The notes below the pieces were generated by a model, which was given only the letters and a program-made list of their open reading frames with translations, had not been told where the DNA came from and searched no databases. Below, piece by piece: positions 860 to 58,194 of a stretch of 64,000 nt of DNA. Position numbers and translations under genes: made by a program. Source of the stretch: Clostridia bacterium (GTDB lineage Bacteria; Bacillota; Clostridia; Christensenellales; UBA1242); the NCBI GenBank assembly GCA_900768545.1, contig CAAGDD010000007.1, forward strand, positions 25,709 through 89,708, read 5' to 3'. Numbering within the stretch: position 1 is the first letter of the stretch; the number at the start of each line of letters is the position of its first letter.

Positions 860-860
860 T

Positions 861-22663: not shown

Positions 22664-22671
22664 GAGGAAAT

Positions 22672-26866: not shown

Positions 26867-26926
26867 AATTATGTAAAAAATTAAAAAACAATTTTGTGCC
26901 GAATTTGCAAATTTTGGGAGAATAAT

Positions 26927-29900
26927 ATGAAAAGAAAAATTCCATTCGTTTTGATGTTGATTTTTGCGTTCTCATTTTTGGGAGCGTATTTTGTCTGCGA
27001 CAATTCAAAAACTAGCGACGCGGGTGATGCTTATGCTGTGAGCGTCAATGCTGACACTTGGGACGGCGTTTATCCAACATCGATCTCGGATTATGATTAC
27101 AAGCGTGACGGCGACACAAACAGATATCGCATTTATACGGCTCGCGGTCTTGCATATTTTTCTCACCTTGTAAATGACAACAACACACAATTTTCTGGCT
27201 GCGACATTTATTTGGAAACAAACATCAATCTCAATTTCAAAGAGTGGACTCCTATCGGCAACAATTCAAACAGCCCATTCAAAGGCAAATTTTATGGAAA
27301 CGGCTACAAAATTTACAATCCAAAACTTGCAACAACAACTGACAGTTTGACTTCGGGCTTGTTTGGATACACTGGTGGTGGAACCATCACAAACCTTACA
27401 CTTGAAAATGTTGACCTTTCACTTTTGGCAAATATTGAAACTGTCGGGCTTCTTGTGGGCAACGCAACAGATACATATATTCAAGGCTGCACAACAAATT
27501 TGAGAAGCGAGCCGATTTTTGGAAACAACTTCCAAGCTGAAACTTTTGGCGGCGTGGTTGGAAAGTTTGCAATTTCAAACAGGGGCGAACTCAAACAATG
27601 CGGACTTGAAGGAAAACTTCTTGCAAAAAATATCACTCAAAACTTTGGTGGCATTGTCGGTCGTTATGTTGCAAACGGAACAGCGATTTCGCAGTGTTAT
27701 ACAAATGGACAATTCGCTCTTGACAATAGTGGCATCGACGCGTCACAAACTTTTGAAAATCCTTTGGCAGTCGGTGGCATTGTGGGCAGAAGTGAAGCTT
27801 CTCAAAATGTTGCCTTTTCGCTCGACAACAGCTATGTAAATTGTGACCTTAAAATGACAAATCTCAAAACAACAAGTTATGTTGGCGCTTTTGCCGGTCA
27901 CACACAAAAAGTTAATATCAAAAATGTTTACTTCAATGGCAGATTAAATTATACAAGTTGCCGAAATATGACTTATTGCGACAGCGTTGGCTTGATTGAC
28001 CCAGATACAACTGTTCAAGGAAAGACAACAAAAGGCACGGGCTATTACACCGAACGAGAAAAGCAAATAAGATATAGATACAAAACTGACGAAAATGGCG
28101 AGTATGTTTTAGACGAAGATGGAAACAAAATTCTCGAATCTTATGAAGTTTGGGTCAATGTTCAAAAAGCAAATCCATATTCTTATGTGAGCAAATTAAA
28201 CCTTGGCACAATCACAAACTTCCGTTACAAATATGTTGATTATGGCTTCAATAGTGGCACAAACAATGGATATTATTATACAAACAAACATCGTCTTGCA
28301 AGAAACGGAAGCTTTTTGTATTATGGCTATGACCCAACAAATTCAAACACTTTCAATTATACAAGAGAATTGGACGAAGTTTATAGAGTGCGCCCAACAA
28401 GCGGGGATATAAACAAATCTCCAAACTATGCTTATTTGGCTGAATATTCTTTGACATCAAATTCAAATGTTTCACAAGTTTTGCCAAGTTATAAAGATTT
28501 TTATGAAGATTCACCATCGTGGGATACTTGGAGCACTAGCGTTTGGAAAAACAATCCTTACAACAACAACGGACTTATCTATTTGCGCTGGACTGACAAT
28601 GTGCGAAAGGCTAACAACGAGCCTTATTATTCGGCGGACGACAATCAGTTGAAAGGTGAAGGAACTCAAACAAATCCTTATCTTATTTCGACCGCGGGCG
28701 ATCTTGGATACTTTGCGACAAACTATGAAAATGTTTATTCGAAGAAAACAAACGCTTATTATGTTTTGACAAATGACATTGACTTGTCGGGCAAAAACTG
28801 GCTTCCAATCGGCAACGAAAAAGCACCATTTTCTGGAGTTTTTGACGGAAATAACTATACAATTTCTGGCTTGACTTGCACCTTCCAACAAGCGAAAAAA
28901 TATCAAGGTTTGTTTGGAGTGACCAAAAACGCAGTAATCAAAAATATCACAATCGAAAAGTCAAAATTTATCAATGCGACAAGTGATGGAACTTATGGTG
29001 TGTTTGCTGGAAAAGTTTGTGAAAATTCATACTTTGTAAACTGCAAATCTGTTTACAACTATCAATATTTTGACGACGAAAAAGACGACAGCGACCCAAA
29101 CAAACCAAAAGTGCCAATCTTTGGCTGCATTGATGCAAACGCAAATCTCGATTCAAACATTTATGTTGTTTATGGTGTGAAAAACTGTTCTCAAACTTAT
29201 GACCTTCAAAAAGACAACTTCATAAACCCAGAAGACGAAGTTTTGCTTGGCAATAGCAATGTTGTTGCTTCAAGCGTTTTGCATTTTGGATATGATGTCA
29301 AAGTTTATCGAAATGGCGGAACTTTCTATAAGGCAAGCGAAGCCAACGATATCACTTGGGGCAAAACAACTTATCGCTATGCAAAATTTGAATATACAAA
29401 TTCAAACGGCGAAACAAAAACAAGTAGCAATCCATATTATGGCAAAATCGATATCGATTATCACTTTATGATTGAAAAGGTTGATGCTGGCTGGAATTAC
29501 ATTCAACAAAGCATCGACTCGACAATTGGTCAAAACCTTCCAGCACTTTCAAATCGTTATGGCGAAAAAGATATTTTGATCAAACAAGGCTATATTTTGA
29601 CAGGATATAAACTTGCTGACGAAACAAATCAAGTTTTACTTAGCAGTTCAAACGATGATCATACATTCTCACTTATTGACTTTGATCCTTTCCAAAACAA
29701 GATTATCGCAGGGCTCAAGCCACAATGGAAATATCAAAGAGCGAAAGTTAAACTTTATTTAAACCTGCTTGAAAAGTCGTGGTATAAGACCGAACTTACA
29801 AAATATGCATATGACAGTATTTTCAAAGTCGATGACCGCGGTGAAGTTTATGTTGAATATGATTGCGAATATGACACTTTTTTTAACAACTTGTCATTTA

Positions 29901-32900: not shown

Positions 32901-35900
32901 GATATCATTCGCCAAGCAAATATTATTGGGGGTATCATGTCTATAGTGAAGATGACAGTGTTATCACAGGTGGCACGATCGACCTTTCGACAATCAGTTT
33001 GGACGATACATATTTCTATCGCGGCAGTTTGACAACAAAAATTCATTTTTACAGAATTTGGACACCAAGCACTTATACTATTTATTTCAATGCTGGAAAA
33101 GGTTATTATCAAGGCGACAACGCAGCACTTGAAATCGATTATGACACCGACTTCAACAACACTCTTATCGGCGAAGAAAACTTGAGCGAAGCAGTGAAGA
33201 GAGTTGGCGCAAACACCTATCGTGAAGGTTACAAACTCGTCGGCTGGAATTACAACGAAACACGCATTTTTGACAATGACGGAAATTTGAAAGACGATGA
33301 TGTTGTCTTTATCGGCGGAAGATATAAAGTCGTTGGAAATATCACTCTTGATGCAGTTTGGATTGAAGGTAATTATGATGTCGAAATTGTCACAAATGAC
33401 GCTGATAGTGCAAAACTCAATGGTCAAGATTTGACAAACACAAAATTTGTTATCAAATATGCTCAAACTTTTGAAAATCTTTCTCAAGATGGTGAAAACT
33501 TTAATATCTCACTTGACGATTTTGCTTTTGAAAGAAAAGGATATATCTTTGACGGATTTTACACATTAGACGGCGGTGTAAAAACAAAAGTCACCACCAA
33601 AACAGAATTTGACCGAAACTTGAAAGGTGCAAATTTGAGCAGTGGAGTTATACTTTATGTCGGCTGGAAGTTTGACGAAAGTTATTTGGCTCTTGACTTA
33701 AATTCGACCACTTTTGAAAACAAGACTTTTGACAAAAAGATCTCGACTTATTATTTAGGGAGTATGTTTGACAGCTCAAACATCGTCAAAATTGAAAACT
33801 TTATAAATAGTTCTACTCAAACTCAATTATCTTTGTCGGCAAATGTCACAAAGAGCACACTTGGCATAAGCATTTCATCAACTAACGCTTCTGTCAATAG
33901 CGAACAAATGAGCTTTGTTGTTAAAAATGCAGGAACTTATTATATTACACTCAAATTTGTCATCATTGATGATGCAGAGTTTTTGAATTTGGGAACAGTG
34001 TATGAAAAAACCATTACTTTCTCTGTTACTTGCGAAAAAGCAGTGATTGACGCTGAAGAAATTGAAAAAGCGTTTGGCGACGAAGCAAAACTTAAAAATC
34101 TTCAACGCCTTGCTGAAAATCTCGTAAGCAAAGATAGTGCACTTTTATCTTGCGAAACACTTACAGCATTTATAAATGAATATAAAAAACTCGATTCGAC
34201 AATTGCTGATGAGACAAACGACGAAGTTTACAATTATATTAAAACCAAATATTATTTGTTGTATCACACAAACGGCAATGAATTTAAGAAGTATAAAGAT
34301 TGGACTTATCAACAATTTGTTGACGAAAGATTTGCAGAAAGTGAAGAATATGCTCAAATTTTGAAAAAATCTATGTTCTTCGATTTTTATGACAGCGAAA
34401 ACGAAGTTACTCAAATGATTTTGGACAATGACGCGACAAAATACAACACACTTTCACTTCTGTCAAAACACGGTGCGGATATTTTGTCAAATGTTGAAGA
34501 TGTGACAATCTCGGCAGTAAGATTATTTAATTACACAAATTTGACAGCTCTTTCAAGTCCGTCAGTGAGAATTTATTTTGAAGATGAGTTGAAAAACTAT
34601 CAAACAAGTTTTGACGAAAATGGTGCTTATATTCAAGTTAATGCGGGATATGTTTATCCACAAGTCTTAAAAATTAAAAACAATTCGACCAGAAAATCTA
34701 CATATTTCAATGGTCAAAGCGATAAATTTGAAATCGAATGGCAAGCAAATCAAGCGCCTGTTGAAATTGCTGGTCAAAATGGACAATATTATCGAATTGG
34801 ACAAACAAAATATTTTGTTTCAGCAAAACTTTACACTAGTGGTGCTGGGCAAAATGACATAGACACAGACTTCTCTTGGACGGGCGATAAAAATTATTTG
34901 TATTTTGATGAAGTGCGAATTTTTGAAAATGACGGCGATAATTACACCGAAGTGACCGACCTTTATCGCTTGGCACTTGACGAAGATGATATATTCTCAA
35001 TTTTGGGTGTTAAAGGGCTTGTTCGGCTCAACTTGTATAGCAAATATCGAACACTTTTGGAAAATTCAATCGAGATTGGTGATGTTGACAGAAAAATGGC
35101 TCAAAGGTCAAACCTTTTGAAGGTTTCAAGCGTGACCTACACAGACCCAGACACAAACAAATCTGTCACAACAACCGATACCAAAGCGTTGAATGTTGGA
35201 TCAAGATTTGAAGTTTCAAATATTTTGATGTTTGAAATTTTGAGCGACAGCGACAACACACTTTCAATCTATGCAAATAGACTTGTTACAAAAATGACAT
35301 TTGCTATTGAAGATAGATTTATTGGCACAAACAAATATTTTGGCTTCAATCGTTGGGCAGACAATAACTCAAACAATTTTGAAGACGGTGAAGTAAATCC
35401 TTCTTATACAAATCTTGCAGATGTGACAGATGTGACTTTTAATTTCACTTACGATACCACAGACGACACAATCGCAGCCACAACAACTGCGGGACACAAA
35501 TATCAAGGCGAAGTTGACAGCTTGTTTGAAATTGACTATTATGCATTCTTCACTGACCTTGTTGAAGCGGAATATAAGTTAAATTTCAAGGGCAAAGAAG
35601 ACCGAACAGACATTTTGAAATTGGGATATTCAACACAAGACAACATTTATATTCCTTCTCAAACAGGTTTTAGCGCTTCAAGCATTAAAGTTGTGGGACT
35701 TGATTACACAACAAGACTTGATTATAGCGAAATTTTTGTAGGCACTGACAAAGTGTTTAGAGGGTTGAATATCGGCTTTGACGCTAGCACAGCGACCGGG
35801 CAAGAACTTTTGGACGGACTGAAAAATTATCACCAAAAAGTGATTTTTGAAATGCTTTGGACAATGAACGATATCAAAGCAGAACAATATTTCACAACTT

Positions 35901-38900
35901 ACAAAACTTCGACCGGCAGTTTGGAATATTTCACTTATGACAGCGTGGCAAATATAACAAATTACAATGACGAATTCTTCTCATATTCTTATACTTGGCA
36001 AAAATTTGACAGCGGAATTTGGACAACTTTGTCAAACGGCGAAAGATTGACCTTCCAGTCAAACGGAAGATATATCGACAGCGGAAGATACCGTTTGAAG
36101 ATTGTTGCACAAGTTTTGCCAGCATATACAAGTTCGATTGAGTCGGGCGCAACTTCAAAATCTTTGGATCTCAACTTTGAACTTCAATTTATGAGATATC
36201 AAGTGACCGAAGTTTCGCTTCCAGAAAATCGCTCGGCGGACTATGATGCAAAAGACCACTTGACAGACTTCACTGTTGGAGCAAGATACAAATCTTATAA
36301 TCGTGAAACTGACAGTTATGACACCGACCTTCAAATTTCTTCTCAATATTCAAAAGTTGGAAATATGATTTTCTCAGCATTGTCAAATGGCGCAGCTGTT
36401 GAAAAAGCGATAAATGTTGGCACTTACAATATCAGTTTTGTGTTTGATGAAGAATTGTTTGATGTTTCAAACATTTCGACTGACAATATGAAATTTGACT
36501 TTGAAATTTTGCCAATTGATGTCGATTTGTCAAAATATAAGTCGACACTCGACGCCTTTTCAAAAATCTTCAACGAAACAGATCCAGAACTTTCGATCAT
36601 CATTTATGAAACACAAGAAAACATCAAAATAAATCTTTTGCGACAAGCGGGCGAAGATTTGGGTGTTTATGAAATTTATTTTGCGGGCGTAAGTCAAGAA
36701 GTTAAAAACAATATAAATTACAAATTTAATGATGTTATGTTGTTTGAAAACGGATCTTTGACCGCAGCGGCAAGCACAACAAACATTGGAAAGTTTGAAA
36801 TTAAACAATCGCTCGAACTTGAAATCTATTATGAAGAAAGCGAAGCAGCAAATTTGCAATTTAATTTCAACAATTTTGATTATCAATATGAAATCACAAA
36901 CAATGCCCAACTTGTTATTAAAAACAATTCAATCACTGTTAAAACAATAAGTTTGAAACTTTATGACAAGGCGCAAAAGAAAGATGTTTCGGGAGAACAA
37001 TTAAACATTTTGAAAGCACTTTTGGGCTCGATTGTTCCAAACTTTGCAGGCGGAACAAACGCAGTTAGAACAAGCGGAACTTATTATTACAGCCCAGTGG
37101 CGAGCGACGAACTTAAAAATTATTATCCAACAATCAAGTTTAGAGATGGATATTCGATCACAATCGTTGCAAACTCTGTTGATGACTTTGTTGTTGAAAA
37201 AGTGTTTGACGGAAATGATATGCAATATTTTGATCTCGACAAAAACGAAATTTTGGATATTGACTCTTATAGCGGAGTTTACATTTGCGCAAGATATACA
37301 TCTGTTCACGTGGGTGAAAATATCAAAGTTGTTTTGTGGCTTGAATCGAAAAACACAAGCGAAGATTTGTCAAATTATCAACTTGCAAACACTTCAACAA
37401 CAGGAAAAATTACAAAACTTAAAACAAACTTGAATGCTACACTTGACAAATCAAGTTACACTTTCACCGAAGTGACAAAATCAAATGTTGATGAACTTTT
37501 GAGTTTCACTTTGACATCAACCGACGGAAATGATGTAACTTCACTTTTATACACGGGCTATTATTCAATAGATTTTCATTTGAAAAATGCAAATGTTGAC
37601 CAATTTGACTATGTTTACAAAGGTTCTTACAATTTTGAAGTAACTGCGACATTTGGTGACTTTGAGATATTAAGTTACAATTTGCCAACACTTCAAATCG
37701 ACCTACTTTCTGTTGAAGTTTCACTAGGCGAAGGCTATGTAACAACAAATGCAGGTCAAACAATCGCGGCTTCTTATGAAAGACAAATCACTTATGACAA
37801 ATTCAATTTGAATATAAATCTTTTGGCTTATGACGGCGACACTGCTCTTGCAAACACGACCGCAGTCGAAGGAAAATATAAACTTGTTTTGGCGCAAAAT
37901 TTGTTTGAAAACGATAGTTTAAAAATTGTTTTGAAAGACAACGAATCAAGTTTTGTTGTTTTGAAAATGGCAGGCACTTTGTTTGCTAGACTTGACGACC
38001 AAAGCGTTTTGACAGACAATGTTTACAACAAAAAAACTTACAAATTTGTTGGTGACGCCGAAAACAAAACTTTAAAAATTTATCAAGATGACACACTTTT
38101 AAAACAAACAACGATTTCGTTCTTCACCAAAAATGATGAAGGCGTTGAAACGATTGACAATGATGTAACATTCACCACACTCAGCATTTTGACTTTTGAT
38201 GGATTAAATCAAGTGACTTTGGCAGGGAATTATTTGTTGAAGATTTCGACTGTTTCATCAAAATATGCAAACTCGGCAGTGTTTGAAATCGAAAACAATT
38301 TTGTCATCGATCAAAAACAAATTGATGTGACAAAACTTGATCTTACAAAAAGTTATGACCGAAGAACGGACAAAAACATAACTCAAATTGACGAAGTTGA
38401 ACTCGGCGATAGCGTTGCGATTTTGGCAAGATTCGATAGCGTCAATGTTGGCGAAACAAACGGAAAACTTTTGCTTCAAGGCACAGATTTGAAAAACTAT
38501 GCTCTGTCACAAACTACATTTACAAACGGAATGATAAACAAAGCAGACGCAACATTGACTTTGACAAGCACAAAGTTTGTTTATGGTGACTTTAAGTCAA
38601 GCGCAGACATTGCTTTCACAATCACAGCTTCTTCAATCGTTTTGCCAAGCGAATATACAGTTTTGTTTGATATTGAAAATGCTCAATATTCATCAGCAAA
38701 TTATCTTTACGCTGGCACTTACAATGTTTTGGCAAATATCGAATCAGATTTTTACAATGTTTCATACACGACCGCACAAATTGAAATTTCAAAATATGTT
38801 TGGAACTTGAATTTGACCGAAAATGGTGGAATGACATTGCATTATGGCGATAGTGATTGCTTTAAAAATACATTTGTTCAACAACTTATCTCAACAATCG

Positions 38901-41900
38901 GCGAACATGTTGATATCAACTTTGAAAGAGAAAGCGGCTCAACAATCGGCTTCTATCGCGTGACTGGCGGAAATATCGACGGCTCGACAAGTCAAAACTA
39001 CACATTTAGCGTGATAGATAGTTCGGCTTATGGATATTTGCAAATCAAGCGTGCAAACAAAGGCTATTATATGCTTTTGAGCGACGAGCAAACTGTTTCG
39101 GCAGACGACCTTCAAACTGGCGCAACAGCAAAACTTTCATACAGCGGAATCGCTTATGACCAAGTGAAACTTGTTTCACAAAACGATCAATATTATATGA
39201 GAGTTTCAAGCCTTTCATATCTACAATATTTCCAAGATTTTGCTTTGAATTTGTATTATTACAATGCAGAAACTTTGCTTTACGAACTCGTGACCGACGA
39301 AAAAGTTGAAGGCTTTGGCACAAACTTCAGTTTGGTCAACAATGAAATCAAAAACATCGGCACATATTCTGTTCAAACAAGCGACACAACTTGCGAAAAC
39401 TTGAATTTGAGAATGGGCAAGCAAAACGCAACGCTTTACACATTCTATATTCAAATTGTTCCAAAACAAATTTACTTCAAAAACAGTGTTGTTTCAAAAG
39501 TGTTTGACAACAAAGACGCAATCATAAATTATGATGACGCAAACACAATCTTTGACGGAATTTACACAAAAGACACTTTGAGCGCAACTATTACTTTGAA
39601 GAAAGGTGACGCCGTGGCTCGATATGTTGGCTCATCTTTGATTTGTGAAGCAAAACTTATCGGCGACGCGGCAGAAAACTATGAAATTGTTTACAAATCG
39701 ATTGATGACAGCGATGTTACAGGGCGAATTGATAGGGCAAACATTAAAGTGATCTTAAATTCTTCTACTTACACCTATGGCGAATTTACAAAAGACACAA
39801 AACTTAAATATGAATATCAAACAGATGTTGATTTGACTGGCTATGACAATTCTTCTCGAAACGGACTTGTTATCGCTTTGAATTTGAACGCACTCGATGA
39901 AAATTATTCAACATCAAATTGCTTAAATGCTGGTGTTTATTCTACTCGTCTTGCATTTGGTGGTGAAGACTTTGTTTTGCAAAGTGTTATCATCGATTCA
40001 AAAGAATATAGTCTTGAAGACATTGATTTGACAAATTTGACTTGCGTTGTGACTGTCGAAACAAAGACTTTGCAGATTGCTCAAAAGAGCGGCGGACAAA
40101 GTTTGAGCGAAATCTTCACAAAGACTTATGACGGCGAAACAAGCGCAAACATCACCGACAGCGACAACAATTTGTTATTTGACATTGTTGGAATTGTAGG
40201 CAGCGATGTTGTGAAAGTTGGCTCGGCATATTATGCACAAGCCACAGTTGGAAAATCTATCAAAGTCAACTTTGATTTGCTTGGCGCAGACAGAGCAAAT
40301 TATGTTTTGGATTCACTCGATTATGGAACAATCAAATCAATCATTGTTGGACTTGAATTTGATTATTCAAAAGACGGCTACAACATCATTTCAAATGTTA
40401 AGAGAGATAGTTTGCAAGAAATTTCAAGCCTTGCGTTCCCATTTATGACAGTGTCATATTTGACATCAAATTCGGCGGACGCAAACACAATCTCGACACG
40501 AAACTTCCCAACTTCGTTGTCGGGCTATACAGGGCACTCTTTCCAATATTGGATTATGACCTTTGATGTTCAAGACGGCTCGACTGAAAAGTCACAACTC
40601 GAATCATTGATAGAAAAATATTCTCTTCAAGCGCAATACAATTCGCTCACTGAAATTTATAGCGTAAGAGTAGATAATGACGAAAAGTCAGTTAGATTTT
40701 TGAATGCTTTAATCGGTGAAGAAAATCTTTTGGGATATTATTACAAACAAAACAACAATATTAAGATCAAATTTGTTCCACAATGGGACGAAAACAGATA
40801 CACATTAAAAGTTGTGATTGCTGATTGGCAAACCAGAAAAGAAATCACAAACGGCAGTTTTGATGTTGTGATCGGCTCAAACACAATCACAAATCAAACT
40901 TCTTGGATCAACAATGATATGAAGTTTGACAGCACTGTTTCGATTATGTTTACAGCAGGCGACCACACATATTATAGAGAATTTTCTTCAAAAGCAGGTA
41001 AATCTTTGTTTGGACAAGAAGTTGGCTCAAGATACATCTTGTCGGCATACAAGATCGACAGTGATGACACAATCACAATTTATGTTGAAAATCAAAAAGT
41101 CAATGTTGTGCTCAAAATCGATGACTCACAGACAAAAGTAGAAAATTCTCAAAACACAAACTTCACAAAACTTGCAAACGGAAATTATACTTGGACAAGC
41201 GATTACTTTGATTTTGTAAACAACAATGTGACATTGAAAACAATCGCTCAAACCATTTCAAAAACAGGCTTCTCACTTGCCACTCTTGGTGGTGTGACCT
41301 ATGATCAATTCGACAGCACGACGATCGCTTCTTTGGTTCGTTCGGCTTCGAGCAAAGAAGAAACAATCACCCTTTCGATGACATTTGGTGCTGAAATGGT
41401 TGAAATCACTTTGGATTTTGGCTATGAATTTGAAGAAGGCGTTTCAACAAAAACTCTTCAAGTCCAATATTCAAGTGCTTTCAATACAGCCGCCGGCTGG
41501 CAAGATGATTTGCAAAGAGAAGGCTATGAATTTGGCGGCTGGTTCAGCGACGAAATGAGAGTGTATGGCACTGATTTGGTTCTCACAACAGACGCTATCA
41601 CTTTGACAGCAAAATGGACAGTTAAAAAATATAGTGTTTCATTTGTGGCAGAAAATGGTCAAATTTTGGACGCAAGTCAAAACTTTGATTATGACGATCA
41701 GACACAAACTTACACATTTAGTGGAGTTCCATATCAAACACAACTCACATTTACACTTTCAGCAAACAGCGGATATGAAATCTCTGACGCGGCTTCGTGG
41801 AGTGAATATTTCACACTTTTGATTAGTCAAGATCGAACATCGGCAGATGTGACATTCACAATGCCAGCGATCGAAGACTTTATATATTCAATGCTTATTG

Positions 41901-44900
41901 AAGCGAAAAACAATCTCATCACTTTTGCGGGAGAACATATCGAAAATGTTGTCGCAAACGGCACAATCCTTCAAGTGGGCGATGAATTTAGACTCAAAAC
42001 AGGAAATTCTTTGACTTTGAAAGTTACACCTTCGACAGGATTCAAACTTTCAGAAAATGTTTTGATCAGTGATGAAAGTGTTGAAGTTTTGTCAAAAACA
42101 ATCGAAGACGGAATTTTGACAATTGAAGTTTCAAACATCACAAAAGATGTTGAGTTTAGTTTTGAAACGATTGAACTTATAAATTCAATCACAATCACAT
42201 TTGATGACTATCAAAACTTTGATCGTATCGTTGTTGACGGCAGAAGTTATGTTGATTTGACAGCGCTTGAAAACTTTAGCGTTCAAACAGGAAAAGTGTT
42301 TGAATTTTATGTAAAAACTCGATATGGATTTGTTATCAAAGATGCTCAAAGTAATGAGTTTACAGTCACTGCAAGTGCATCGACCGAAGAAGGCTATGAA
42401 GAGTTCACAAAAGTTTCGGTCAGTCAAATCTATGTTGACGGACAAGTTTTGATTTCAAGTGAAAGACAAAAATTTGTCATAAAAGCTGAAGTTGTTTCTT
42501 ATGACGAAAATCAAAACGAAATCTATGAACCAGCAAACGAAGCATTGATCAAAAAACAAAGCTCAGCGGGCGGAATCGAACTTGTAAAAGTTATTGAAGT
42601 TGAATATGAAACAGAAGTTACAATTAAATACAACAATTCAAGCATATTCAGTTTTGTAGGTTGGAGTTATGACAAGACAACAGTCATTAGTCGTGACAAA
42701 GAATTTGTTTACAAAACAGAACAAGATCAAACGATTTATGCTATCTTCTCAAAACTTAAATACACTATCACTTTGAGTGCGGCGGACAACTTTGAGTTGA
42801 CCGAAGAAGCAGGTGGCGTAGAAAAAGTGGAATATCGAAAGGTTTACACTTCGTTCTATCGTCAAGACAGCAACGGAAACAAAGTTGAAATGACATCTTC
42901 TTCATTTGACATTTATTATGGCTCTGAAGAAACAATCTATGTTGACATTCCAAATGGATATACTTATGTTGGATATGGATATATGGAAAACGGAGTTTAT
43001 ACTCAAATCAATTCGACTCCATCTTCGGCAAGACAAATTAAATTTACAATTTCTTCTTATTCGCTCGACAAATCAAAAACAAATCTCGATATTTGTGTTG
43101 TGATTAGAGCACTTTACACAAGCATAAACTTCGAAAGTTTTGTTGATGTCAATGGAGTAAAACTTGAAAACGAAGTTGGCATAATGAAACTTACAAATTC
43201 AAACAGCGACGATGCAAATAGTTATGGATATGCGGTCGGCTCGCGTGTTCACTATCACAGCGACTCGTTTGAAAACGGGGAAGCAAAATCAAACACCGAT
43301 TTTAGAGTGGTTGCTTTCACCGGTGATGAAATTTTTGTTAAAGTTAAGTGTGAAAGAGTCGGCTATGCGTTCAAGAGCATTACTTCAACAAACAAACAGT
43401 TGGCGATTGTTGAAATTCGTGATGTCGGCGAATATAAGACCTTTAAGATTACAAACTTTACGGGGAACGGCGAAGATATTGATTTTGCAACAGTGACAGT
43501 TTTGTTTAAACCAAAAACAAATATTGTTGACCTTTCATTTGTTGATTCAAACGGAAAAGTAAATGCGGGCGCGTTTACAGTTTCGCCAGAAGACGGAAAC
43601 GAAGGAAAGGTTTGGACATCTGGTCGTGAATATTCTGGACTTACTGTTTCGGCTCTCACTGACACCGCGTTTGTGGTCAATGCGTATATTCGTGTTGGAT
43701 ACACAATCGACCTTTCAAATATCCAAATTGTTGACGAATCAAATATTATTGATCGCTCGACAATCAGCGGCACAGTTTTGTCAATCAAAGACACCGGTTA
43801 TGAAGCGAAAGTTTCATTTAAAGTGAACCGATATTTGGGAGTAACAAAGATCAACATTGTTGTTAAACCTTCGACTTACAAAGTTTTGCTCAAAGAACAA
43901 GACAAAGTTTTGGCACAAATTGACAATGTTGAATTTGGAAAACAATTAAATCTTGTAGATGTTGAAAATATCACTGTTTTGGACGATCGACTTGCCATTA
44001 TCGGCGGAAAACTTAAGTCAGTTATTCCAAAACAAAACTTCAATTTTGAAGGATATTTCACTCATCAAAATGGCGGCGGCGTGAGATATATTGATTCAAA
44101 CGGCGACGCAATAAACGCTTGGAACGAAAGCGGATATCAACTCAACAAACAGACAAACAAATATGAACTTGGCGAAGATGTTTACATCGACGAGTCAGGC
44201 GAAGTGGTCGTTTCACTTTACATTTATTGGTCATATTTGAAGACTCGAATTAGTTTTGAATTTGAGCCTGGCATTGTGACAAATTACACCGCTCAAGATA
44301 TGATTGAAGGTGTTGATTGGTCAAATTCTTGGTTCTACAAGACATCTCCAAATTATATTGAAGTGTCATTCAACACAAACATCAAGATCAACGCTCCAAA
44401 GCTTGACGGATATGGCTTCTTCAAATTTGTGATCAGTCAAAAGAATATTGACGGAATTTTGCTCACCGACGCTGTGGCTTACACAGATTCGATTCCATGG
44501 TCAACAAATGACTATGACAAGATTGTTGAGTGCAACATCAAGCTTGTTTACTTCGCACAAATCGAAGTTGAAACTTTTGGTGGCGAAGGAAGCTTCAATA
44601 TCATTCAAGATTACACAGAGCCACAAGCAAAGACAATGCTCGAAAAAGGCTATGCAGACACTTCAAAGACATGTTCGATTGAAGCTGTGCCAGCCGACGG
44701 ATATGACTTTGCTTATTGGATAGATTTGTCAACAAATGTTAGATATTCGACAAAGATTTTGACAAACTTGACCATTAAACAAAAGACAAGTTATATGCTC
44801 ACATTGGGCGGCAAATCTTCGACTCTCAGTTTTGAACAATATAATCCACAATTTGGTCAAATCACTGGCATAATTGTCGAATCTATGGACAATAGTTACA

Positions 44901-45949
44901 ACGAATACACGCTTGGGCACTATGAATGGACTCACTTTATGAAAGATACAAATCTCGTCACTGTTCGCGTGGGCGACAAGATCACATTTGTGATGAAAGT
45001 CGATTATGGCTTTGCTGTTTCGTGGGATAGAAAAGATATTAAGTTTAGCGAATATCTTGGCGACAACACTTATTATTTTACAATGAAGATTTTGCCAGAA
45101 GACGCAGGAAAGACTGTTGAAATCAATCCAACTTTCCAAGACGAACTTTTGTCGATCTATGTAAATGCTGTTTTTGCTGACGGACAAGTGCGCGACGACG
45201 CGATCGATATGAATATCACTTCGGCAGCGGGAGAAGTTTTGTGCAACGGTCAAAAGACAAACTTCTTTACAATGCGTCACGGCATTGATGCAACAATCGA
45301 TCCAAATGTCAAAGACAGATACAAAGTCGAAAAAGTCACTGTAAAAAATTATGGCAGAACTTTTGAAAATGTTGACGGAATGTTTGAAGACGGCGTTGTA
45401 AAACTCAAAGACAAATTCTTGACCGACAATTTGATTATTGGAAATGTTGAAATTACAATCGAGTTTTCAAGAAAAATGTGGGAAGATGTTGTCAGCGATC
45501 ATTTTGTGGGCGAAGGAACGAAAAACAATCCTTATTTAATAAGATCAGAATATGATTTGGCTATGATGATGAAACTTGTAAATTCTGGTGCAGAGAATGC
45601 GGACGGAGTTTTGTATAGAAAATGTTATTATTTACTTCAAAATGACATTGTTCTTGCAGAAAACTTCTGGACGCCTATTGGAACAGACGAAAACCCATTT
45701 GCGGGCAAGTTTGATTTCAAAGATCACAAAGTTTCAAGCATCTATTTGGCTTATATCTATGAAAGAATCTCATATTATGGCTTGTTTGGAGTTATCGCAA
45801 AAGACGCTCAAATCACTTCAACTGGACCATCACTTTGGTATATTTATTTGATAATTTCTATTATTTTGGTGGTTGTTGCGATTTTGGTGTTTATGATCGT
45901 ATATTCAAAACGACGCAAAAAACAAAGAGAAGAGCTTTCAAAAATTTAA
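26927..45949 (+). CDS. Giant surface protein (about 6340 aa): signal sequence, GLUG-type modules, Listeria-Bacteroides-type repeats, MBG/YDG-type repeats, C-terminal TM anchor
   Basis: Uninterrupted 19,023-nt ORF from ATG 26927, with GGGAGA 5 nt upstream. The TTG at 26894 in the ORF track is rejected. N terminus is MKRKIPFVLMLIFAFSFLGAYFV. Domain evidence is in the sub-features. Confidence 0.95.
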   Translation: MKRKIPFVLMLIFAFSFLGAYFVCDNSKTSDAGDAYAVSVNADTWDGVYPTSISDYDYKRDGDTNRYRIYTARGLAYFSHLVNDNNTQFSGCDIYLETNINLNFKEWTPIGNNSNSPFKGKFYGNGYKIYNPKLATTTDSLTSGLFGYTGGGTITNLTLENVDLSLLANIETVGLLVGNATDTYIQGCTTNLRSEPIFGNNFQAETFGGVVGKFAISNRGELKQCGLEGKLLAKNITQNFGGIVGRYVANGTAISQCYTNGQFALDNSGIDASQTFENPLAVGGIVGRSEASQNVAFSLDNSYVNCDLKMTNLKTTSYVGAFAGHTQKVNIKNVYFNGRLNYTSCRNMTYCDSVGLIDPDTTVQGKTTKGTGYYTEREKQIRYRYKTDENGEYVLDEDGNKILESYEVWVNVQKANPYSYVSKLNLGTITNFRYKYVDYGFNSGTNNGYYYTNKHRLARNGSFLYYGYDPTNSNTFNYTRELDEVYRVRPTSGDINKSPNYAYLAEYSLTSNSNVSQVLPSYKDFYEDSPSWDTWSTSVWKNNPYNNNGLIYLRWTDNVRKANNEPYYSADDNQLKGEGTQTNPYLISTAGDLGYFATNYENVYSKKTNAYYVLTNDIDLSGKNWLPIGNEKAPFSGVFDGNNYTISGLTCTFQQAKKYQGLFGVTKNAVIKNITIEKSKFINATSDGTYGVFAGKVCENSYFVNCKSVYNYQYFDDEKDDSDPNKPKVPIFGCIDANANLDSNIYVVYGVKNCSQTYDLQKDNFINPEDEVLLGNSNVVASSVLHFGYDVKVYRNGGTFYKASEANDITWGKTTYRYAKFEYTNSNGETKTSSNPYYGKIDIDYHFMIEKVDAGWNYIQQSIDSTIGQNLPALSNRYGEKDILIKQGYILTGYKLADETNQVLLSSSNDDHTFSLIDFDPFQNKIIAGLKPQWKYQRAKVKLYLNLLEKSWYKTELTKYAYDSIFKVDDRGEVYVEYDCEYDTFFNNLSFKNEFNKIRNGDSEIDDLYLMSYGYDSSGFATSINSPEYDCSGYVFVNNLDANNPFLCKAEWRADSQNNDYKVDFNFELENFSDKIYSYDFFDSITRQDYLYNSSNPTDSEKYLLLNDDGKSISTTYNTRFSDRRSRKIVYEIKLSPGYRLDMSGISTSPDAKELNDNGVFVTNYFDEGNNGDLNFGRPLISWKYSTIKTKEVDGRTYKSQNQYVYRFVFNNLVGDYLANLKVIRESQSIDTIINGDIAFGIGAKVTADKILIFDKEVGDFVEFNTAFGVDMDTKKLYVAYDYQNNRLVTSSNQFDSITLADKWFDDEGKLRLCYQINVNGTLKNEYYVYKKIEAGTSDNLCSASSNPITLSGGVDLYLSDGAGTLDSSNFIASWARKTDGTSHIHYYTSSSFTFLYSSENSDALFGKIYPNSRELNLSSDETKIYDSEVYNVTIQNTKTKVETDVSGVEIVSILKGAMYFDHIGQFFPKGLTSTSSPTPEAKIELLTKYTNASFQFQAVRKAVADGESEEVIYSNAAYSPMQAVSILQSGGRFTFDIVATDYFRFMNFDGSNPIKIKSSATDTSWNLKFVVTNPTCSSEAEEKTYTDNFNLNNTNILSYHSSSYYKKGTVENGETFAQDTYRVTLEYSGELKPGGYLCSFVCEDVKYSVDYDTKFVDHDENLKYSNEEFNITESNFVDESAADSQITTTLLRNDETDALPNHSDNILFSDNIKFNTTIGQYKGFSFLCWAFNDGSGLQYLENSNEFERLFSILNAQDEKTGDDRFKIKFYAIYERKQANITFESQYFFIENQDETYEENYTNIQISLNKPNITYKYSTADTQSGDLSNLKFEKQLGDEYYFVGYKILLKGENGLEDVLVTKDWQSDAPDVFSIYEFMKNKLSTDETIEAGSSWKIVPILKRKLADVYFHSGTGILADGKICLYNDGLNGIVYDEASNESTNRVFAVKDQIANSSLTLYSFLQWRELGSSMDIENFEDYSGSIEKVFNKRVGYHSPSKYYWGYHVYSEDDSVITGGTIDLSTISLDDTYFYRGSLTTKIHFYRIWTPSTYTIYFNAGKGYYQGDNAALEIDYDTDFNNTLIGEENLSEAVKRVGANTYREGYKLVGWNYNETRIFDNDGNLKDDDVVFIGGRYKVVGNITLDAVWIEGNYDVEIVTNDADSAKLNGQDLTNTKFVIKYAQTFENLSQDGENFNISLDDFAFERKGYIFDGFYTLDGGVKTKVTTKTEFDRNLKGANLSSGVILYVGWKFDESYLALDLNSTTFENKTFDKKISTYYLGSMFDSSNIVKIENFINSSTQTQLSLSANVTKSTLGISISSTNASVNSEQMSFVVKNAGTYYITLKFVIIDDAEFLNLGTVYEKTITFSVTCEKAVIDAEEIEKAFGDEAKLKNLQRLAENLVSKDSALLSCETLTAFINEYKKLDSTIADETNDEVYNYIKTKYYLLYHTNGNEFKKYKDWTYQQFVDERFAESEEYAQILKKSMFFDFYDSENEVTQMILDNDATKYNTLSLLSKHGADILSNVEDVTISAVRLFNYTNLTALSSPSVRIYFEDELKNYQTSFDENGAYIQVNAGYVYPQVLKIKNNSTRKSTYFNGQSDKFEIEWQANQAPVEIAGQNGQYYRIGQTKYFVSAKLYTSGAGQNDIDTDFSWTGDKNYLYFDEVRIFENDGDNYTEVTDLYRLALDEDDIFSILGVKGLVRLNLYSKYRTLLENSIEIGDVDRKMAQRSNLLKVSSVTYTDPDTNKSVTTTDTKALNVGSRFEVSNILMFEILSDSDNTLSIYANRLVTKMTFAIEDRFIGTNKYFGFNRWADNNSNNFEDGEVNPSYTNLADVTDVTFNFTYDTTDDTIAATTTAGHKYQGEVDSLFEIDYYAFFTDLVEAEYKLNFKGKEDRTDILKLGYSTQDNIYIPSQTGFSASSIKVVGLDYTTRLDYSEIFVGTDKVFRGLNIGFDASTATGQELLDGLKNYHQKVIFEMLWTMNDIKAEQYFTTYKTSTGSLEYFTYDSVANITNYNDEFFSYSYTWQKFDSGIWTTLSNGERLTFQSNGRYIDSGRYRLKIVAQVLPAYTSSIESGATSKSLDLNFELQFMRYQVTEVSLPENRSADYDAKDHLTDFTVGARYKSYNRETDSYDTDLQISSQYSKVGNMIFSALSNGAAVEKAINVGTYNISFVFDEELFDVSNISTDNMKFDFEILPIDVDLSKYKSTLDAFSKIFNETDPELSIIIYETQENIKINLLRQAGEDLGVYEIYFAGVSQEVKNNINYKFNDVMLFENGSLTAAASTTNIGKFEIKQSLELEIYYEESEAANLQFNFNNFDYQYEITNNAQLVIKNNSITVKTISLKLYDKAQKKDVSGEQLNILKALLGSIVPNFAGGTNAVRTSGTYYYSPVASDELKNYYPTIKFRDGYSITIVANSVDDFVVEKVFDGNDMQYFDLDKNEILDIDSYSGVYICARYTSVHVGENIKVVLWLESKNTSEDLSNYQLANTSTTGKITKLKTNLNATLDKSSYTFTEVTKSNVDELLSFTLTSTDGNDVTSLLYTGYYSIDFHLKNANVDQFDYVYKGSYNFEVTATFGDFEILSYNLPTLQIDLLSVEVSLGEGYVTTNAGQTIAASYERQITYDKFNLNINLLAYDGDTALANTTAVEGKYKLVLAQNLFENDSLKIVLKDNESSFVVLKMAGTLFARLDDQSVLTDNVYNKKTYKFVGDAENKTLKIYQDDTLLKQTTISFFTKNDEGVETIDNDVTFTTLSILTFDGLNQVTLAGNYLLKISTVSSKYANSAVFEIENNFVIDQKQIDVTKLDLTKSYDRRTDKNITQIDEVELGDSVAILARFDSVNVGETNGKLLLQGTDLKNYALSQTTFTNGMINKADATLTLTSTKFVYGDFKSSADIAFTITASSIVLPSEYTVLFDIENAQYSSANYLYAGTYNVLANIESDFYNVSYTTAQIEISKYVWNLNLTENGGMTLHYGDSDCFKNTFVQQLISTIGEHVDINFERESGSTIGFYRVTGGNIDGSTSQNYTFSVIDSSAYGYLQIKRANKGYYMLLSDEQTVSADDLQTGATAKLSYSGIAYDQVKLVSQNDQYYMRVSSLSYLQYFQDFALNLYYYNAETLLYELVTDEKVEGFGTNFSLVNNEIKNIGTYSVQTSDTTCENLNLRMGKQNATLYTFYIQIVPKQIYFKNSVVSKVFDNKDAIINYDDANTIFDGIYTKDTLSATITLKKGDAVARYVGSSLICEAKLIGDAAENYEIVYKSIDDSDVTGRIDRANIKVILNSSTYTYGEFTKDTKLKYEYQTDVDLTGYDNSSRNGLVIALNLNALDENYSTSNCLNAGVYSTRLAFGGEDFVLQSVIIDSKEYSLEDIDLTNLTCVVTVETKTLQIAQKSGGQSLSEIFTKTYDGETSANITDSDNNLLFDIVGIVGSDVVKVGSAYYAQATVGKSIKVNFDLLGADRANYVLDSLDYGTIKSIIVGLEFDYSKDGYNIISNVKRDSLQEISSLAFPFMTVSYLTSNSADANTISTRNFPTSLSGYTGHSFQYWIMTFDVQDGSTEKSQLESLIEKYSLQAQYNSLTEIYSVRVDNDEKSVRFLNALIGEENLLGYYYKQNNNIKIKFVPQWDENRYTLKVVIADWQTRKEITNGSFDVVIGSNTITNQTSWINNDMKFDSTVSIMFTAGDHTYYREFSSKAGKSLFGQEVGSRYILSAYKIDSDDTITIYVENQKVNVVLKIDDSQTKVENSQNTNFTKLANGNYTWTSDYFDFVNNNVTLKTIAQTISKTGFSLATLGGVTYDQFDSTTIASLVRSASSKEETITLSMTFGAEMVEITLDFGYEFEEGVSTKTLQVQYSSAFNTAAGWQDDLQREGYEFGGWFSDEMRVYGTDLVLTTDAITLTAKWTVKKYSVSFVAENGQILDASQNFDYDDQTQTYTFSGVPYQTQLTFTLSANSGYEISDAASWSEYFTLLISQDRTSADVTFTMPAIEDFIYSMLIEAKNNLITFAGEHIENVVANGTILQVGDEFRLKTGNSLTLKVTPSTGFKLSENVLISDESVEVLSKTIEDGILTIEVSNITKDVEFSFETIELINSITITFDDYQNFDRIVVDGRSYVDLTALENFSVQTGKVFEFYVKTRYGFVIKDAQSNEFTVTASASTEEGYEEFTKVSVSQIYVDGQVLISSERQKFVIKAEVVSYDENQNEIYEPANEALIKKQSSAGGIELVKVIEVEYETEVTIKYNNSSIFSFVGWSYDKTTVISRDKEFVYKTEQDQTIYAIFSKLKYTITLSAADNFELTEEAGGVEKVEYRKVYTSFYRQDSNGNKVEMTSSSFDIYYGSEETIYVDIPNGYTYVGYGYMENGVYTQINSTPSSARQIKFTISSYSLDKSKTNLDICVVIRALYTSINFESFVDVNGVKLENEVGIMKLTNSNSDDANSYGYAVGSRVHYHSDSFENGEAKSNTDFRVVAFTGDEIFVKVKCERVGYAFKSITSTNKQLAIVEIRDVGEYKTFKITNFTGNGEDIDFATVTVLFKPKTNIVDLSFVDSNGKVNAGAFTVSPEDGNEGKVWTSGREYSGLTVSALTDTAFVVNAYIRVGYTIDLSNIQIVDESNIIDRSTISGTVLSIKDTGYEAKVSFKVNRYLGVTKINIVVKPSTYKVLLKEQDKVLAQIDNVEFGKQLNLVDVENITVLDDRLAIIGGKLKSVIPKQNFNFEGYFTHQNGGGVRYIDSNGDAINAWNESGYQLNKQTNKYELGEDVYIDESGEVVVSLYIYWSYLKTRISFEFEPGIVTNYTAQDMIEGVDWSNSWFYKTSPNYIEVSFNTNIKINAPKLDGYGFFKFVISQKNIDGILLTDAVAYTDSIPWSTNDYDKIVECNIKLVYFAQIEVETFGGEGSFNIIQDYTEPQAKTMLEKGYADTSKTCSIEAVPADGYDFAYWIDLSTNVRYSTKILTNLTIKQKTSYMLTLGGKSSTLSFEQYNPQFGQITGIIVESMDNSYNEYTLGHYEWTHFMKDTNLVTVRVGDKITFVMKVDYGFAVSWDRKDIKFSEYLGDNTYYFTMKILPEDAGKTVEINPTFQDELLSIYVNAVFADGQVRDDAIDMNITSAAGEVLCNGQKTNFFTMRHGIDATIDPNVKDRYKVEKVTVKNYGRTFENVDGMFEDGVVKLKDKFLTDNLIIGNVEITIEFSRKMWEDVVSDHFVGEGTKNNPYLIRSEYDLAMMMKLVNSGAENADGVLYRKCYYLLQNDIVLAENFWTPIGTDENPFAGKFDFKDHKVSSIYLAYIYERISYYGLFGVIAKDAQITSTGPSLWYIYLIISIILVVVAILVFMIVYSKRRKKQREELSKI
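27053..27960 (+). other. N-terminal GLUG-motif / beta-helix-like module 1
   Basis: YIYTARGLAYFSHLV...WTPIGNNSNSPFKGKFYGNGYKIYN is followed by repeated GLFG, VGLLVG, FGGVVG, FGGIVGRYVANGTAISQCYTNG, VGGIVG and VGAFAG turns. Confidence 0.7.
28655..29060 (+). other. NPY-start / GLUG-type module 2
   Basis: GEGTQTNPYLISTAGDLGYFA...YYVLTNDIDLSGKNWLPIGNEKAPFSGVFDGNNYTISGL...QGLFGVTKNAVIKNI. Confidence 0.7.
33040..33690 (+). repeat. Listeria-Bacteroides (Flg_new/InlB B-repeat)-type modules
   Basis: YTIYFNAGKGYY...REGYKLVGWNY...ITLDAVW, then YDVEIVTN...RKGYIFDGFYT...ILYVGWKF. More degenerate copies with the G-[YF]-x-[FL]-x-G-[WY] signature occur near 29590, 32100, 32450 and 40530. Confidence 0.65.
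36200..40340 (+). repeat. Array of MBG/YDG-type repeat modules
   Basis: Repeated units of the form (V/A/I)G(T/S/V)Y...NY...(I/L)xP/K...K.YD(G/R/N). Examples are NVGTYNISF..FEILP, KVFDGNDMQYF, KSYDRRTDKNI..LKNYAL, AGTYNVLAN..IEISK, KVFDNKDAIINY..AENYEIVY and KTYDGETSANI..RANYVLDSLDYGTIKSI. Confidence 0.65.
41390..45330 (+). repeat. Run of roughly 90-100 aa Ig-like/InlB-B-repeat-like modules
   Basis: Recurrent modules of the form strand, then G-Y/F-x-F/V, then strand. Examples are REGYEFGGWFS..LTAKWTVKKYSVSF, SANSGYEISD, PSTGFKLSEN, KTRYGFVIKD, FSFVGWSY..IYAIFSKLKYTITL, NGYTYVGYGY, ERVGYAFKSI, IRVGYTIDLS, FNFEGYFT, DGYGFFKFVI, DGYDFAYWID and VDYGFAVSWD. Confidence 0.55.
45505..45830 (+). other. 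Third NPY-start module, membrane-proximal
   Basis: VGEGTKNNPYLIRSEYDLAMMMKLV...YYLLQNDIVLAENFWTPIGTDENPFAGKFDFKDHKVSSIYL. Confidence 0.65.
45833..45946 (+). other. C-terminal TM helix plus basic tail
   Basis: LWYIYLIISIILVVVAILVFMIVY followed by SKRRKKQREELSKI. Confidence 0.8.
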
Positions 45950-58085: not shown

Positions 58086-58194
58086 AAGAAATCTCCTTTT
58101 ATATTTTCGAATATATTATAACATGAAATTTTTTGTTTGTAAATACCTTTTAAAAATATATTTTTTTGACAATAGTTGTTTTGGGTGAAAAATA

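Follow-up and report, generated by a model that had tools for sequence, protein, structure and literature searches.

What is a gene of 19 kb for, when its neighbours are all housekeeping genes and its product matches no characterized protein over its full length? This question was raised by a stretch of 64,000 nucleotides (nt) from a Clostridia bacterium (contig CAAGDD010000007.1 of assembly GCA_900768545.1, positions 25,709 to 89,708 of the forward strand), referred to below as the window. A first inspection of its letters, here called the sequence-only reading, had reported an uninterrupted open reading frame (ORF) of about 6,340 amino acids (aa) filling 30% of the window. Its product was described as a mosaic surface protein that would form, together with a second giant gene upstream, a dedicated fibre or adhesin system. 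The frame is open on the + strand from a TTG at 26894 to the stop at 45949, with the first ATG at 26927. From this ATG a protein of 6,340 aa with a single terminal stop is encoded (716 kDa, isoelectric point 4.6), and the gene occupies 29.7% of the window, as had been described. Gene and protein are called giant below, and the upstream gene giant2. As set out in the following, giant is intact and conserved in length, and it is probable, at roughly 60%, that it is a surface fibre or adhesin, anchored in the membrane at its C-terminus and fixed and non-repetitive in architecture. Coordinates of all features are collected in Table 1.

Integrity and conservation of the giant gene

Copies of the same locus were found in public assemblies through the flanking trpS and uppP products. 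Many human-gut metagenomes, of the Hadza/Nepal and several other cohorts, contained the locus, as did the metagenome-assembled genome (MAG) GCA_964315605.1 at NCBI. Each recovered copy was called at 6,331-6,341 aa, the spread being due to start-codon choice; the exception is contig L013, whose end cuts the gene. At 90% identity, the exact giant protein falls into a cluster with 59 members, of which the 15 listed are all full length (6,331-6,351 aa) and come from different samples and assemblers. Following alignment, these 15 alleles were 95.6-99.4% identical, with three internal indel sites of 1-2 aa each and 565 polymorphic sites spread fairly evenly along the protein. The ratio of nonsynonymous to synonymous substitution rates (dN/dS) of 12 strains relative to the window allele was 0.11-0.18, and that of most flanking housekeeping genes 0-0.13. 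The giant gene is under purifying selection.

An assembly artefact or a decaying pseudogene might be suspected from a 200-N gap within the gene in a scaffolded assembly of a related species (L182) and from the truncation on L013, but the full-length cluster members from different samples and assemblers, the dN/dS values, which speak against a pseudogene, and the intact orthologs in other species exclude this reading. Tandem DNA repeats that might mislead assemblers were searched for within the gene using Tandem Repeats Finder and none were found. Frameshifts or stops, named in the sequence-only reading as signs of a pseudogene or misassembly, were likewise found in none of the independent assemblies. 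The guanine-plus-cytosine (GC) content of the gene (0.35-0.38) is the same as that of its flanks, which marks the gene as native.

Orthologs were collected using TypA as an anchor to scan GTDB species genomes. This resulted in 80 loci with a TypA 80-91% identical to that of the window, all from MAGs of uncultured Clostridia of human, rabbit, deer, chicken and mouse guts; the relatives include an uncultured Catabacter sp., a Christensenella sp. and a Candidatus Caccovivens sp. The block giant2-orf278-typA-dnaB-orf281-orf371-gltX-trpS-giant, with uppP downstream, is present in 33 related species. In these species an ORF matching the profile of the giant N-terminus follows trpS or gltX and extends past the end of the fetched locus. 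Syntenic orthologs on two metagenome contigs measure at least 4,455 and 3,985 aa and were aligned collinearly with giant aa 533-4533 (30% identity in one high-scoring segment pair (HSP) of 1,394 bits) and aa 1763-4336 (28%), respectively. On contig L098 two ORFs (1,474 and at least 2,517 aa) take the place of the single ORF of at least 3,985 aa on contig L099; the split is due to a frameshift or to an error of sequencing in one assembly.

With UppP homologs as anchors, orthologs of six more species were recovered over their 3′ 10 kb. Called lengths were 6,246, 6,369/6,363, 6,370 and 5,914 aa; one further ortholog is truncated by its contig and one contains a scaffold gap. Four of the 3′ halves were tested and each gave one HSP to giant aa approximately 3011-6339, at 31-42% identity. 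Over the regions sampled in eight orthologs, which jointly cover almost the full length, the proteins are collinear at 28-42% identity, and UppP itself is only 63-68% identical among the species with orthologs of 5,914-6,370 aa. Single collinear HSPs and near-constant lengths thus indicate a conserved length and order of domains in a fast-diverging sequence, as judged against the 80-91% identity of TypA. The term mosaic, in the sense of a shuffled or variable protein, does not hold for an architecture that is fixed in this way. Along the conservation profile relative to the orthologs, identity reaches its overall maximum, 58-63%, at aa 5700-5900 and is lowest at aa 1000-1700 (22-26%, with many gaps).

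Library searches returned far less. A metagenome scan with the N-terminal profile gave mostly unrelated GLUG proteins, the only orthologs being those on contigs L097, L098 and L099. No matches were obtained in the protein library with aa 701-2200, where the query itself was not returned, nor with a profile of aa 1900-3099, nor in a genome-contig scan with giant itself as query. Among 1.84 billion representatives, aa 720-1919 retrieved only a fragment from the same species and a spurious tandem-repeat protein. Since the query went unreturned although it is present in the 90%-cluster collection, the indices of the two large protein libraries apparently hide giants, and the library negatives were discounted. 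More generally, results of the type 'no homolog' from such libraries cannot be trusted for very long proteins. That giant might be an orphan was ruled out by the orthologs detected by tblastn at the fetched loci and by its presence in the cluster collection.

Domain architecture and anchoring

The N-terminus starts with a Sec-type signal peptide. Residues A35 and A37 of its A-x-A motif are invariant in 27 orthologs and directly precede a conserved (S)VWDG, so that cleavage would occur at this site. A lipoprotein signal was considered and rejected: the only candidate, YFVC at aa 21-24, is non-canonical and its Cys is not kept across the aligned orthologs, which conserve the A-x-A instead. At the other end, a transmembrane (TM) helix followed by a tail rich in K and R is kept in five orthologs (L176, L178, L180, L183 and L184). 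By hydropathy no further hydrophobic segment was detected beyond the signal and this helix, so that the signal sequence and the TM anchor of the sequence-only reading were both confirmed. LPXTG was not found before the TM helix, SPVAS (aa 3389) and NPFAG (aa 6256) being the only motifs that match it loosely, and no GGxGxD motif of the RTX type occurs in giant.

Table 1. Features of the window, with positions counted from its first nucleotide
Feature	Position	Strand	Basis or remark
Second giant gene (giant2), 3,714 aa, 414 kDa	6075..17219	+	Ends 9.7 kb upstream of giant
orf278, 278 aa	17255..18091	+	N-terminal signal, C-terminal TM, KRKKLKKI tail; no Pfam match
Ribosome-binding site GGGAG	26916..26920	+	6-nt spacer to ATG 26927; direct sequence reading
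giant ORF, 6,340 aa + stop	26927..45949	+	ORF list, translation; dN/dS; intact in 59-member 90% cluster
Sec-type signal peptide, aa 1-37	26927..27037	+	MKRK + 19-aa hydrophobic core; predicted cleavage after A-Y-A
Head module 1, aa ~53-430: NPY-type (53-181) + five GLUG-like turns	27083..28216	+	Pfam in orthologs, PDB profile
Head module 2, NPY-type (GEGTQTNPYLISTAGDL...), aa 571-698	28637..29020	+	BLAST, hhalign, conservation
Dark region, aa ~760-3100	29204..36226	+	Collinear in orthologs at 22-36% identity
Listeria-Bacteroides-like modules, aa ~2011-2250 (GYKLVGW 2101, GYIFDGF 2205)	32957..33676	+	Motif count, profile
Conserved segment, predicted alpha-helical, aa ~2376-2481	34052..34369	+	Only long non-beta stretch
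YDG/MBG-type repeat region, aa ~3100-4490	36224..40396	+	Pfam, motifs, profile + hhalign repeats 88-98%
Listeria-Bacteroides repeat, aa 4845-4898	41459..41620	+	TIGR02543, Pfam Flg_new
Most conserved part, membrane-near, aa ~5500-6100	43424..45226	+	Conservation profile
InlB-B-like Flg_new_2 (PF18998), aa 5908-5950	44648-44776	+	35.2 bits vs cut-off 23.6
Third NPY-type module, truncated, aa 6189-6296, directly into TM helix	45491..45814	+	Kept in six orthologs
C-terminal TM helix aa 6303-6326 + basic cytoplasmic tail SKRRKKQREELSKI aa 6327-6340	45833..45946	+	Hydropathy

Three NPY-type modules had been noticed by eye, one of them near the C-terminus, and the three are indeed mutually related (BLAST E 3e-15 to 2e-6; hhalign 96-99%). 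The first is part of head module 1, in which it is followed by GLUG-like turns at GLLVG 174, GGVVG 208, GGIVG 241, GGIVG 283 and GAFAG 320. The GLUG assignment of the sequence-only reading is borderline for the window copy (Pfam Glug, PF07581: 19.6 bits against a cut-off of 20.5) and was secured by the orthologs, 18 of 27 of which match (best E 1.2e-9). Peptidase_M26_N (PF05342) was matched by 7 of the 27 (best E 9.4e-8), and the ortholog profile (positions 115-397) matched the N-terminal domain of IgA1 proteases (PDB 7JGJ, 6XJB, 6XJA and 7UVK; E 7e-19 to 1e-14). By these profile matches, module 1 is assigned as a homolog of the N-terminal beta-helix domain of M26 IgA1 proteases. Within the N-terminal third, module 2 is conserved best (51% identity to orthologs); it matches PDB 3N6Z, a 'putative IgA1 protease' (E 1e-5).

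Between these head modules and the middle of the protein lies the dark region. Over aa 1-3200 no Pfam or NCBIfam match was obtained at E≤0.1, and the dark region is likewise blank in the orthologs. Its comparison with the PDB gave no match even with a profile. The sequence-only reading had filled 29.1-35.9 kb with degenerate Listeria-Bacteroides modules. This was not borne out, as only three strict motifs were counted there (four in the whole protein, for which 0.7 would be expected by chance). Searches for internal repeats in the dark region (profile, hhalign) were negative except for aa 2011-2250, of which aa 2011-2180 are weakly related (profile, E 1e-5 to 6e-6) to aa 4824-4913 around the Flg_new domain. 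In the ortholog on L099, Flg_new was matched in the dark region at E 0.0015, under the Pfam cut-off. The segment at aa approximately 2376-2481 aligns with orthologs at 34-36% identity, nearly gapless. Helices were placed there in both AlphaFold2 (AF2) runs at a predicted local distance difference test score (pLDDT) below 50, a hint that this segment may be alpha-helical. Overall, the single-sequence AF2 models had a pLDDT of 29.6 (aa 1900-3099) and 38.5 (aa 2330-2510).

The MBG/YDG block placed by eye at 36.2-40.3 kb coincides with the repetitive region at aa approximately 3100-4490. Four YDG domains (aa 3425-3497, 3808-3872, 4191-4270 and 4399-4463) with related units between them were delimited by motif and hhalign; Pfam YDG (PF18657) scored 35.2 bits against a cut-off of 25, in two stretches. 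MBG_2 (MBG, PF18676) is absent from the window protein and was found in one of four orthologs (E 2.7e-6). This region is the only repetitive part of giant besides the NPY modules and the weak modules at aa 2011-2250. Six repeats of 160 aa at aa 2770-4996, suggested by a first iterative hidden Markov model, were distrusted as drift; profile and hhalign comparisons backed only aa approximately 3100-4490.

Farther downstream, about 4 kb had been read as Ig-like or InlB-B-like modules. What stands of this is one significant Flg_new_2 domain, found also in four of four orthologs (best E 5.7e-14), and one Listeria-Bacteroides repeat, detected through TIGR02543 in a single copy at aa 4864-4898 (23.0 bits against a cut-off of 20.95). 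Pfam Flg_new (PF09479) reached 16.4 bits against a cut-off of 27 in the window protein and was matched by four of four orthologs (best E 3.2e-6). The remainder of aa 4490-6190 has no assignable domain. Profile searches of the PDB with alignments of three, four and seven orthologs of the central and C-terminal parts returned nothing beyond the NPY-type module, and a full-length match to a characterized adhesin family was not found in Pfam, NCBIfam or PDB.

A protease, glycosidase or effector domain could lie unseen in these unassigned parts, which would make giant an enzyme or toxin tethered to the surface. The N-terminal module it has in common with M26 IgA1 proteases, the large parts dark to all libraries tried and the conserved, possibly helical, non-beta insert at aa 2376-2481 would suit such a protein. 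We nevertheless regard this as very improbable, as no HExxH, HxxEH or GxSxG motif occurs in all 6,340 aa and neither Peptidase_M26_C nor any other catalytic Pfam or NCBIfam family matches the window protein or the eight orthologs. His and Cys are moreover scarce (0.6% each), and the C-terminus is a membrane anchor and no toxin domain. The lack of a catalytic or toxin signature was counted in favour of a fibre.

The second giant gene, possible functions and the neighbourhood

The presence of a second giant gene 9.7 kb upstream was confirmed. Its product carries a canonical lipoprotein signal (LSAC, aa 20-23) and no C-terminal TM helix. Using Pfam, only a weak Big_2 was detected in giant2. An NPY-type module is located at its C-terminal end (aa approximately 3344-3494): a profile of the last 420 aa, built from 30 orthologs, matched NPY-type module 2 of giant in hhalign (97% probability, E 8.6e-11) and also PDB 3N6Z (E 6e-4). 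This link was seen by profile-profile comparison only and was not detected by plain hmmsearch or by Pfam Glug. In both giants the sequence thus places NPY-type modules, in giant modules 1 and 2, at the end predicted to lie opposite the membrane anchor. An ORF matching giant2, of at least 2,800-3,000 aa and at 20-41% identity, precedes typA in about 40 species. In about 40 species it is directly followed by orf278, which has the same anchoring design as giant. In the 90% clustering the giants have 59 and 60 members, and the neighbours uppP and orf278 46-65. These data are consistent with giant, giant2 and orf278 forming a functional set. As to a dedicated system of both giants, synteny in about 33 species and an NPY-type module in both make the proposal plausible; housekeeping genes lie between them, and the part of the proposal that has them act jointly found no evidence.

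The function favoured for giant, a membrane-anchored surface fibre or adhesin, would work as follows. Exported via Sec by its signal peptide, the protein would be held in the cytoplasmic membrane by the C-terminal TM helix and the basic tail acting as stop-transfer, with the N-terminus out and the C-terminus in. Several dozen non-identical, mostly beta-rich domains would make up the ectodomain of approximately 6,260 aa, which would project as a long fibre. The two N-terminal M26-N/GLUG beta-helix modules would be its membrane-distal binding head, a placement suggested by giant2, which is anchored N-terminally with its NPY-type module at the C-terminus, the reverse of giant. The most conserved region, aa 5500-6300, would be the base beside membrane and wall. 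The likeliest job would be attachment to a gut glycan or protein surface, such as mucus, food particles or another microbe. We infer topology, fibre shape and any binding function from these features. The reading as a surface protein rests on GLUG/M26-N, YDG, Flg_new and Flg_new_2, all annotated on large bacterial surface proteins; the statement that the modules of giant (GLUG/M26-N, YDG, Listeria-Bacteroides and InlB-B-like) are known from large Gram-positive surface proteins was upheld. If the reading is right, the N-terminal beta-helix heads are a target for binding assays or antibodies; if giant is merely another adhesin stalk, a useful annotation is still gained for about 33 species.

Several observations weigh against such a fibre. 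For approximately 60-70% of giant no homolog was detected in Pfam, NCBIfam or PDB, ortholog profiles included, and a non-adhesive function could be hidden there. The low pLDDT values, 29.6 and 38.5, leave a beta-rich fibre of many domains without support from models. To our knowledge, no function of the GLUG/M26-N module has been established in any protein. The third NPY-type module stands beside the membrane, at odds with a simple picture of a head at the tip, and the least conserved part is aa 1000-1700 rather than the tip. Typical adhesin stalks consist of tandem repeats that vary in copy number. Giant is constant in length and made of unique domains, for which a structural or ruler role accounts at least equally well, and its polymorphism is even rather than blockwise, a poor fit to a classical adhesin stalk. 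The placement in family UBA1242, finally, is drawn from relatives and not from a phylogeny of this genome.

The fixed length leads to the proposal that giant is a membrane-anchored scaffold or spacer ('ruler') organizing the wall or an outer layer, with a role like that of S. aureus Ebh and unlike that of a ligand-binding adhesin. Length is near-invariant within the species and stays at 5,914-6,370 aa across species with a UppP 63-68% identical; the architecture is collinear and non-repetitive, and the polymorphism shows no hypervariable blocks. The core gene lies amid housekeeping genes, 44 nt before uppP with no terminator-like site between, and the C-terminal TM helix with basic tail resembles that of Ebh. 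Still, modules typical of binding proteins are found at the predicted distal end, and the fast divergence between species (28-42% identity relative to 80-91% for TypA) is typical of exposed interaction surfaces. A wall-binding domain (SLH, LysM, CWB or similar) was absent in the Pfam scan. A purely structural role is accordingly regarded as unlikely, and the surface fibre or adhesin is kept as the preferred reading.

The lineage offers a more specific setting. Candidatus Caccovivens corresponds to GTDB genus UBA11517 in family UBA1242, order Christensenellales (PMC8035907). UBA1242 genomes are reported to be mostly smaller than 1 Mb, to lack amino-acid, nucleotide and lipid biosynthesis as well as standard uptake transporters, and to keep sporulation genes (PMC12306168; see also PMC13155120). 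An obligate symbiotic or parasitic life, possibly dependent on partner cells, has been proposed for these bacteria (PMC12306168), and in another study UBA1242 and relatives were associated with host growth. The MAGs behind these reports are fragmented (N50 6-20 kb in one study), and a gene of 19 kb is not visible whole in them. As uncultured bacteria, UBA1242 and relatives are widespread in the gut and have reduced genomes. The two giants, intact, core, syntenic and under purifying selection across the clade, are candidates for their cell-cell or cell-host contact machinery.

Giant and giant2 might, in this setting, be an organelle tethering a genome-reduced, dependent bacterium to a microbe or host cell from which metabolites are obtained. 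The relatives at the TypA loci include Ca. Caccovivens (UBA11517, family UBA1242), with the small genomes, missing pathways and proposed obligate symbiosis or parasitism just described (PMC12306168). Both giants are core genes by their cluster sizes (59 and 60, relative to 46-65 for neighbours) and syntenic in about 33 species. They total 30.2 kb, approximately 3% of a 1-Mb genome, and giant surface proteins have been proposed for the same role in Patescibacteria, DPANN archaea and Omnitrophota. However, the small genome and the metabolic gaps are known from UBA1242 reports and not from the genome of this organism, and the partner dependence of UBA1242 is itself only a genomic inference. The sequence gives no hint of a ligand, and large surface proteins are common in free-living gut Firmicutes too. 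A tethering organelle is therefore held as a tentative possibility. Its strongest form, in which the giants are a family-wide, core, length-conserved fibre pair serving as the partner-attachment apparatus of obligately dependent (epibiotic or parasitic) UBA1242, seems unlikely. If true, Bacillota would have in this pair an equivalent of the giant surface proteins of Patescibacteria and DPANN, built largely of folds outside Pfam and PDB.

The genes around giant are all of the housekeeping type. Upstream are typA, dnaB, gltX and trpS, and downstream uppP, a P-type ATPase gene, holB, PSP1/yaaT and a methyltransferase gene, followed farther on by spmA/B-like genes, tatD, ksgA, L9, dus, pgk and tpi. 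No tRNA or Rfam matches were found in the window. No sortase, secretion or glycosyltransferase gene adjoins giant, and no sortase gene occurs anywhere in the window. Genes of a type I secretion system (T1SS) were not found beside giant, the upstream ABC transporter genes (2..2648) not being adjacent. The sole polysaccharide-related match in the window is a flippase-like Polysacc_synt ORF (58176..59717), 12 kb downstream. Motif and domain scans were thus in line with the initial finding that giant lacks an enzymatic motif, an LPXTG signal and adjoining secretion, sortase or glycosyltransferase genes. A prophage, mobile-element or otherwise foreign origin of giant was ruled out by its flank-like GC content, the housekeeping flanks and the conserved synteny.

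Upstream of giant, the intergenic region (26642-26926, approximately 290 nt) is AT-rich and presumably contains the promoter; promoter-like matches before the gene were no more frequent than in shuffled sequence. After trpS, a hairpin with a T-run was read by eye at approximately 26604-26641 and is absent from the terminator scan. The 44 nt between the giant stop and the uppP start (45950-45993) are without a terminator-like site, and promoter-like hexamers occur in the final 120 nt of giant (45835-45905). The uppP gene may be co-transcribed with giant or have a promoter inside it.

Between dnaB and gltX (21818-23772, + strand), two ORFs without Pfam match were observed, orf281 (281 aa, N-terminal TM helix) and orf371 (371 aa, canonical LVGC lipobox), both in the same position in most relatives at 23-46% identity. 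TrpS (25519-26529, + strand) is 73-77% identical to that of relatives L027 and L049 and approximately 33% identical to the TrpS in the same position of most others, which suggests an in-place swap for a different type. Sporulation-type genes in the window are a 'Gate' pair resembling spmA/spmB (52054-53240, - strand), a DUF1540 protein gene (55487-55999, + strand) and the Polysacc_synt ORF, which is SpoVB/MurJ-like (58176-59717, + strand); they fit the published remark that UBA1242 genomes unexpectedly retain sporulation genes. An AT-rich stretch of approximately 1 kb (3419-4386) lies between a CvpA-like gene and a pseudouridine synthase gene, with a GC content of 0.27-0.32 in the spanning 2-kb windows, the lowest of the window. 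It contains no ORF of at least 150 aa, no Rfam or tRNA match and no cluster of DnaA boxes. A search for a replication origin at this site likewise gave nothing.

Comparison with known systems

The closest structural matches are the M26 IgA1 proteases of streptococci and Gemella (6XJA, 6XJB, 7JGJ and 7UVK/7UVL) and Bacteroides 3N6Z, with which giant has N-terminal modules and GLUG repeats in common. Unlike these proteases, giant has no catalytic domain, HExxH or LPXTG. Its M26-N-type module makes up less than 10% of the 6,340 aa and is present in three copies, one of them truncated against the membrane anchor.

Anchoring is most similar to that of Ebh of S. aureus and Embp of S. epidermidis. 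Both are Sec-exported proteins of near-megadalton size and proposed fibres, with a C-terminal TM helix and positive tail instead of LPXTG and sortase, and S. aureus Ebh affects envelope integrity. They are built of many near-identical alpha-helical FIVAR/GA repeats. Giant shares the C-terminal TM helix and positively charged tail; in contrast to Ebh and Embp, it has no FIVAR/GA match in Pfam, no tandem repeats and no PDB sequence match of this kind, and it appears beta-rich; sequence homology to the two was not detected. From sortase-anchored LPXTG proteins giant differs by its TM helix and basic tail in place of LPXTG, with no sortase gene in the window. From T1SS-exported RTX/BAP adhesins (LapA, SiiE and MpIBP type) it differs by the lack of GGxGxD and by its N-terminal signal and C-terminal TM helix.

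With Bacillota surface proteins of the MBG/YDG and Flg_new_2 type, giant shares four YDG domains and one Flg_new_2, and MBG_2 in one ortholog. These domains amount to approximately 6% of its residues, and its overall architecture is shared by no characterized member. The likeness to the giants of episymbionts (Patescibacteria, DPANN such as the nanohaloarchaeal SPEARE, and Omnitrophota) is functional only and consists in a few percent of an approximately 1-Mb genome being devoted to such genes; there is no sequence relation, the phylum differs (Bacillota), and partner dependence is inferred there as well.

Giant proteins of 10,000-30,000 aa with Listeria-Bacteroides repeats, proposed to be adhesins, have been described from gut Clostridia (West-Roberts et al. 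2023, bioRxiv 10.1101/2023.11.21.568195). Like giant, they belong to Clostridia of the mammalian gut, carry Listeria-Bacteroides repeats and are proposed to bind other cell surfaces. Their size is greater and their repeat domains are described as numerous, whereas giant has one Listeria-Bacteroides copy over the curated cut-off and a few weak ones, the remainder being unique sequence of fixed length. The existence of giant gut Clostridia proteins with such repeats is thus already known. New is a defined ortholog family of approximately 6,300 aa, fixed and non-repetitive in architecture, about two thirds dark, core and syntenic in at least 33 species and paired with giant2. By its non-repetitive make-up and fixed length, giant is unusual among giant surface proteins and a source of unclassified extracellular folds.

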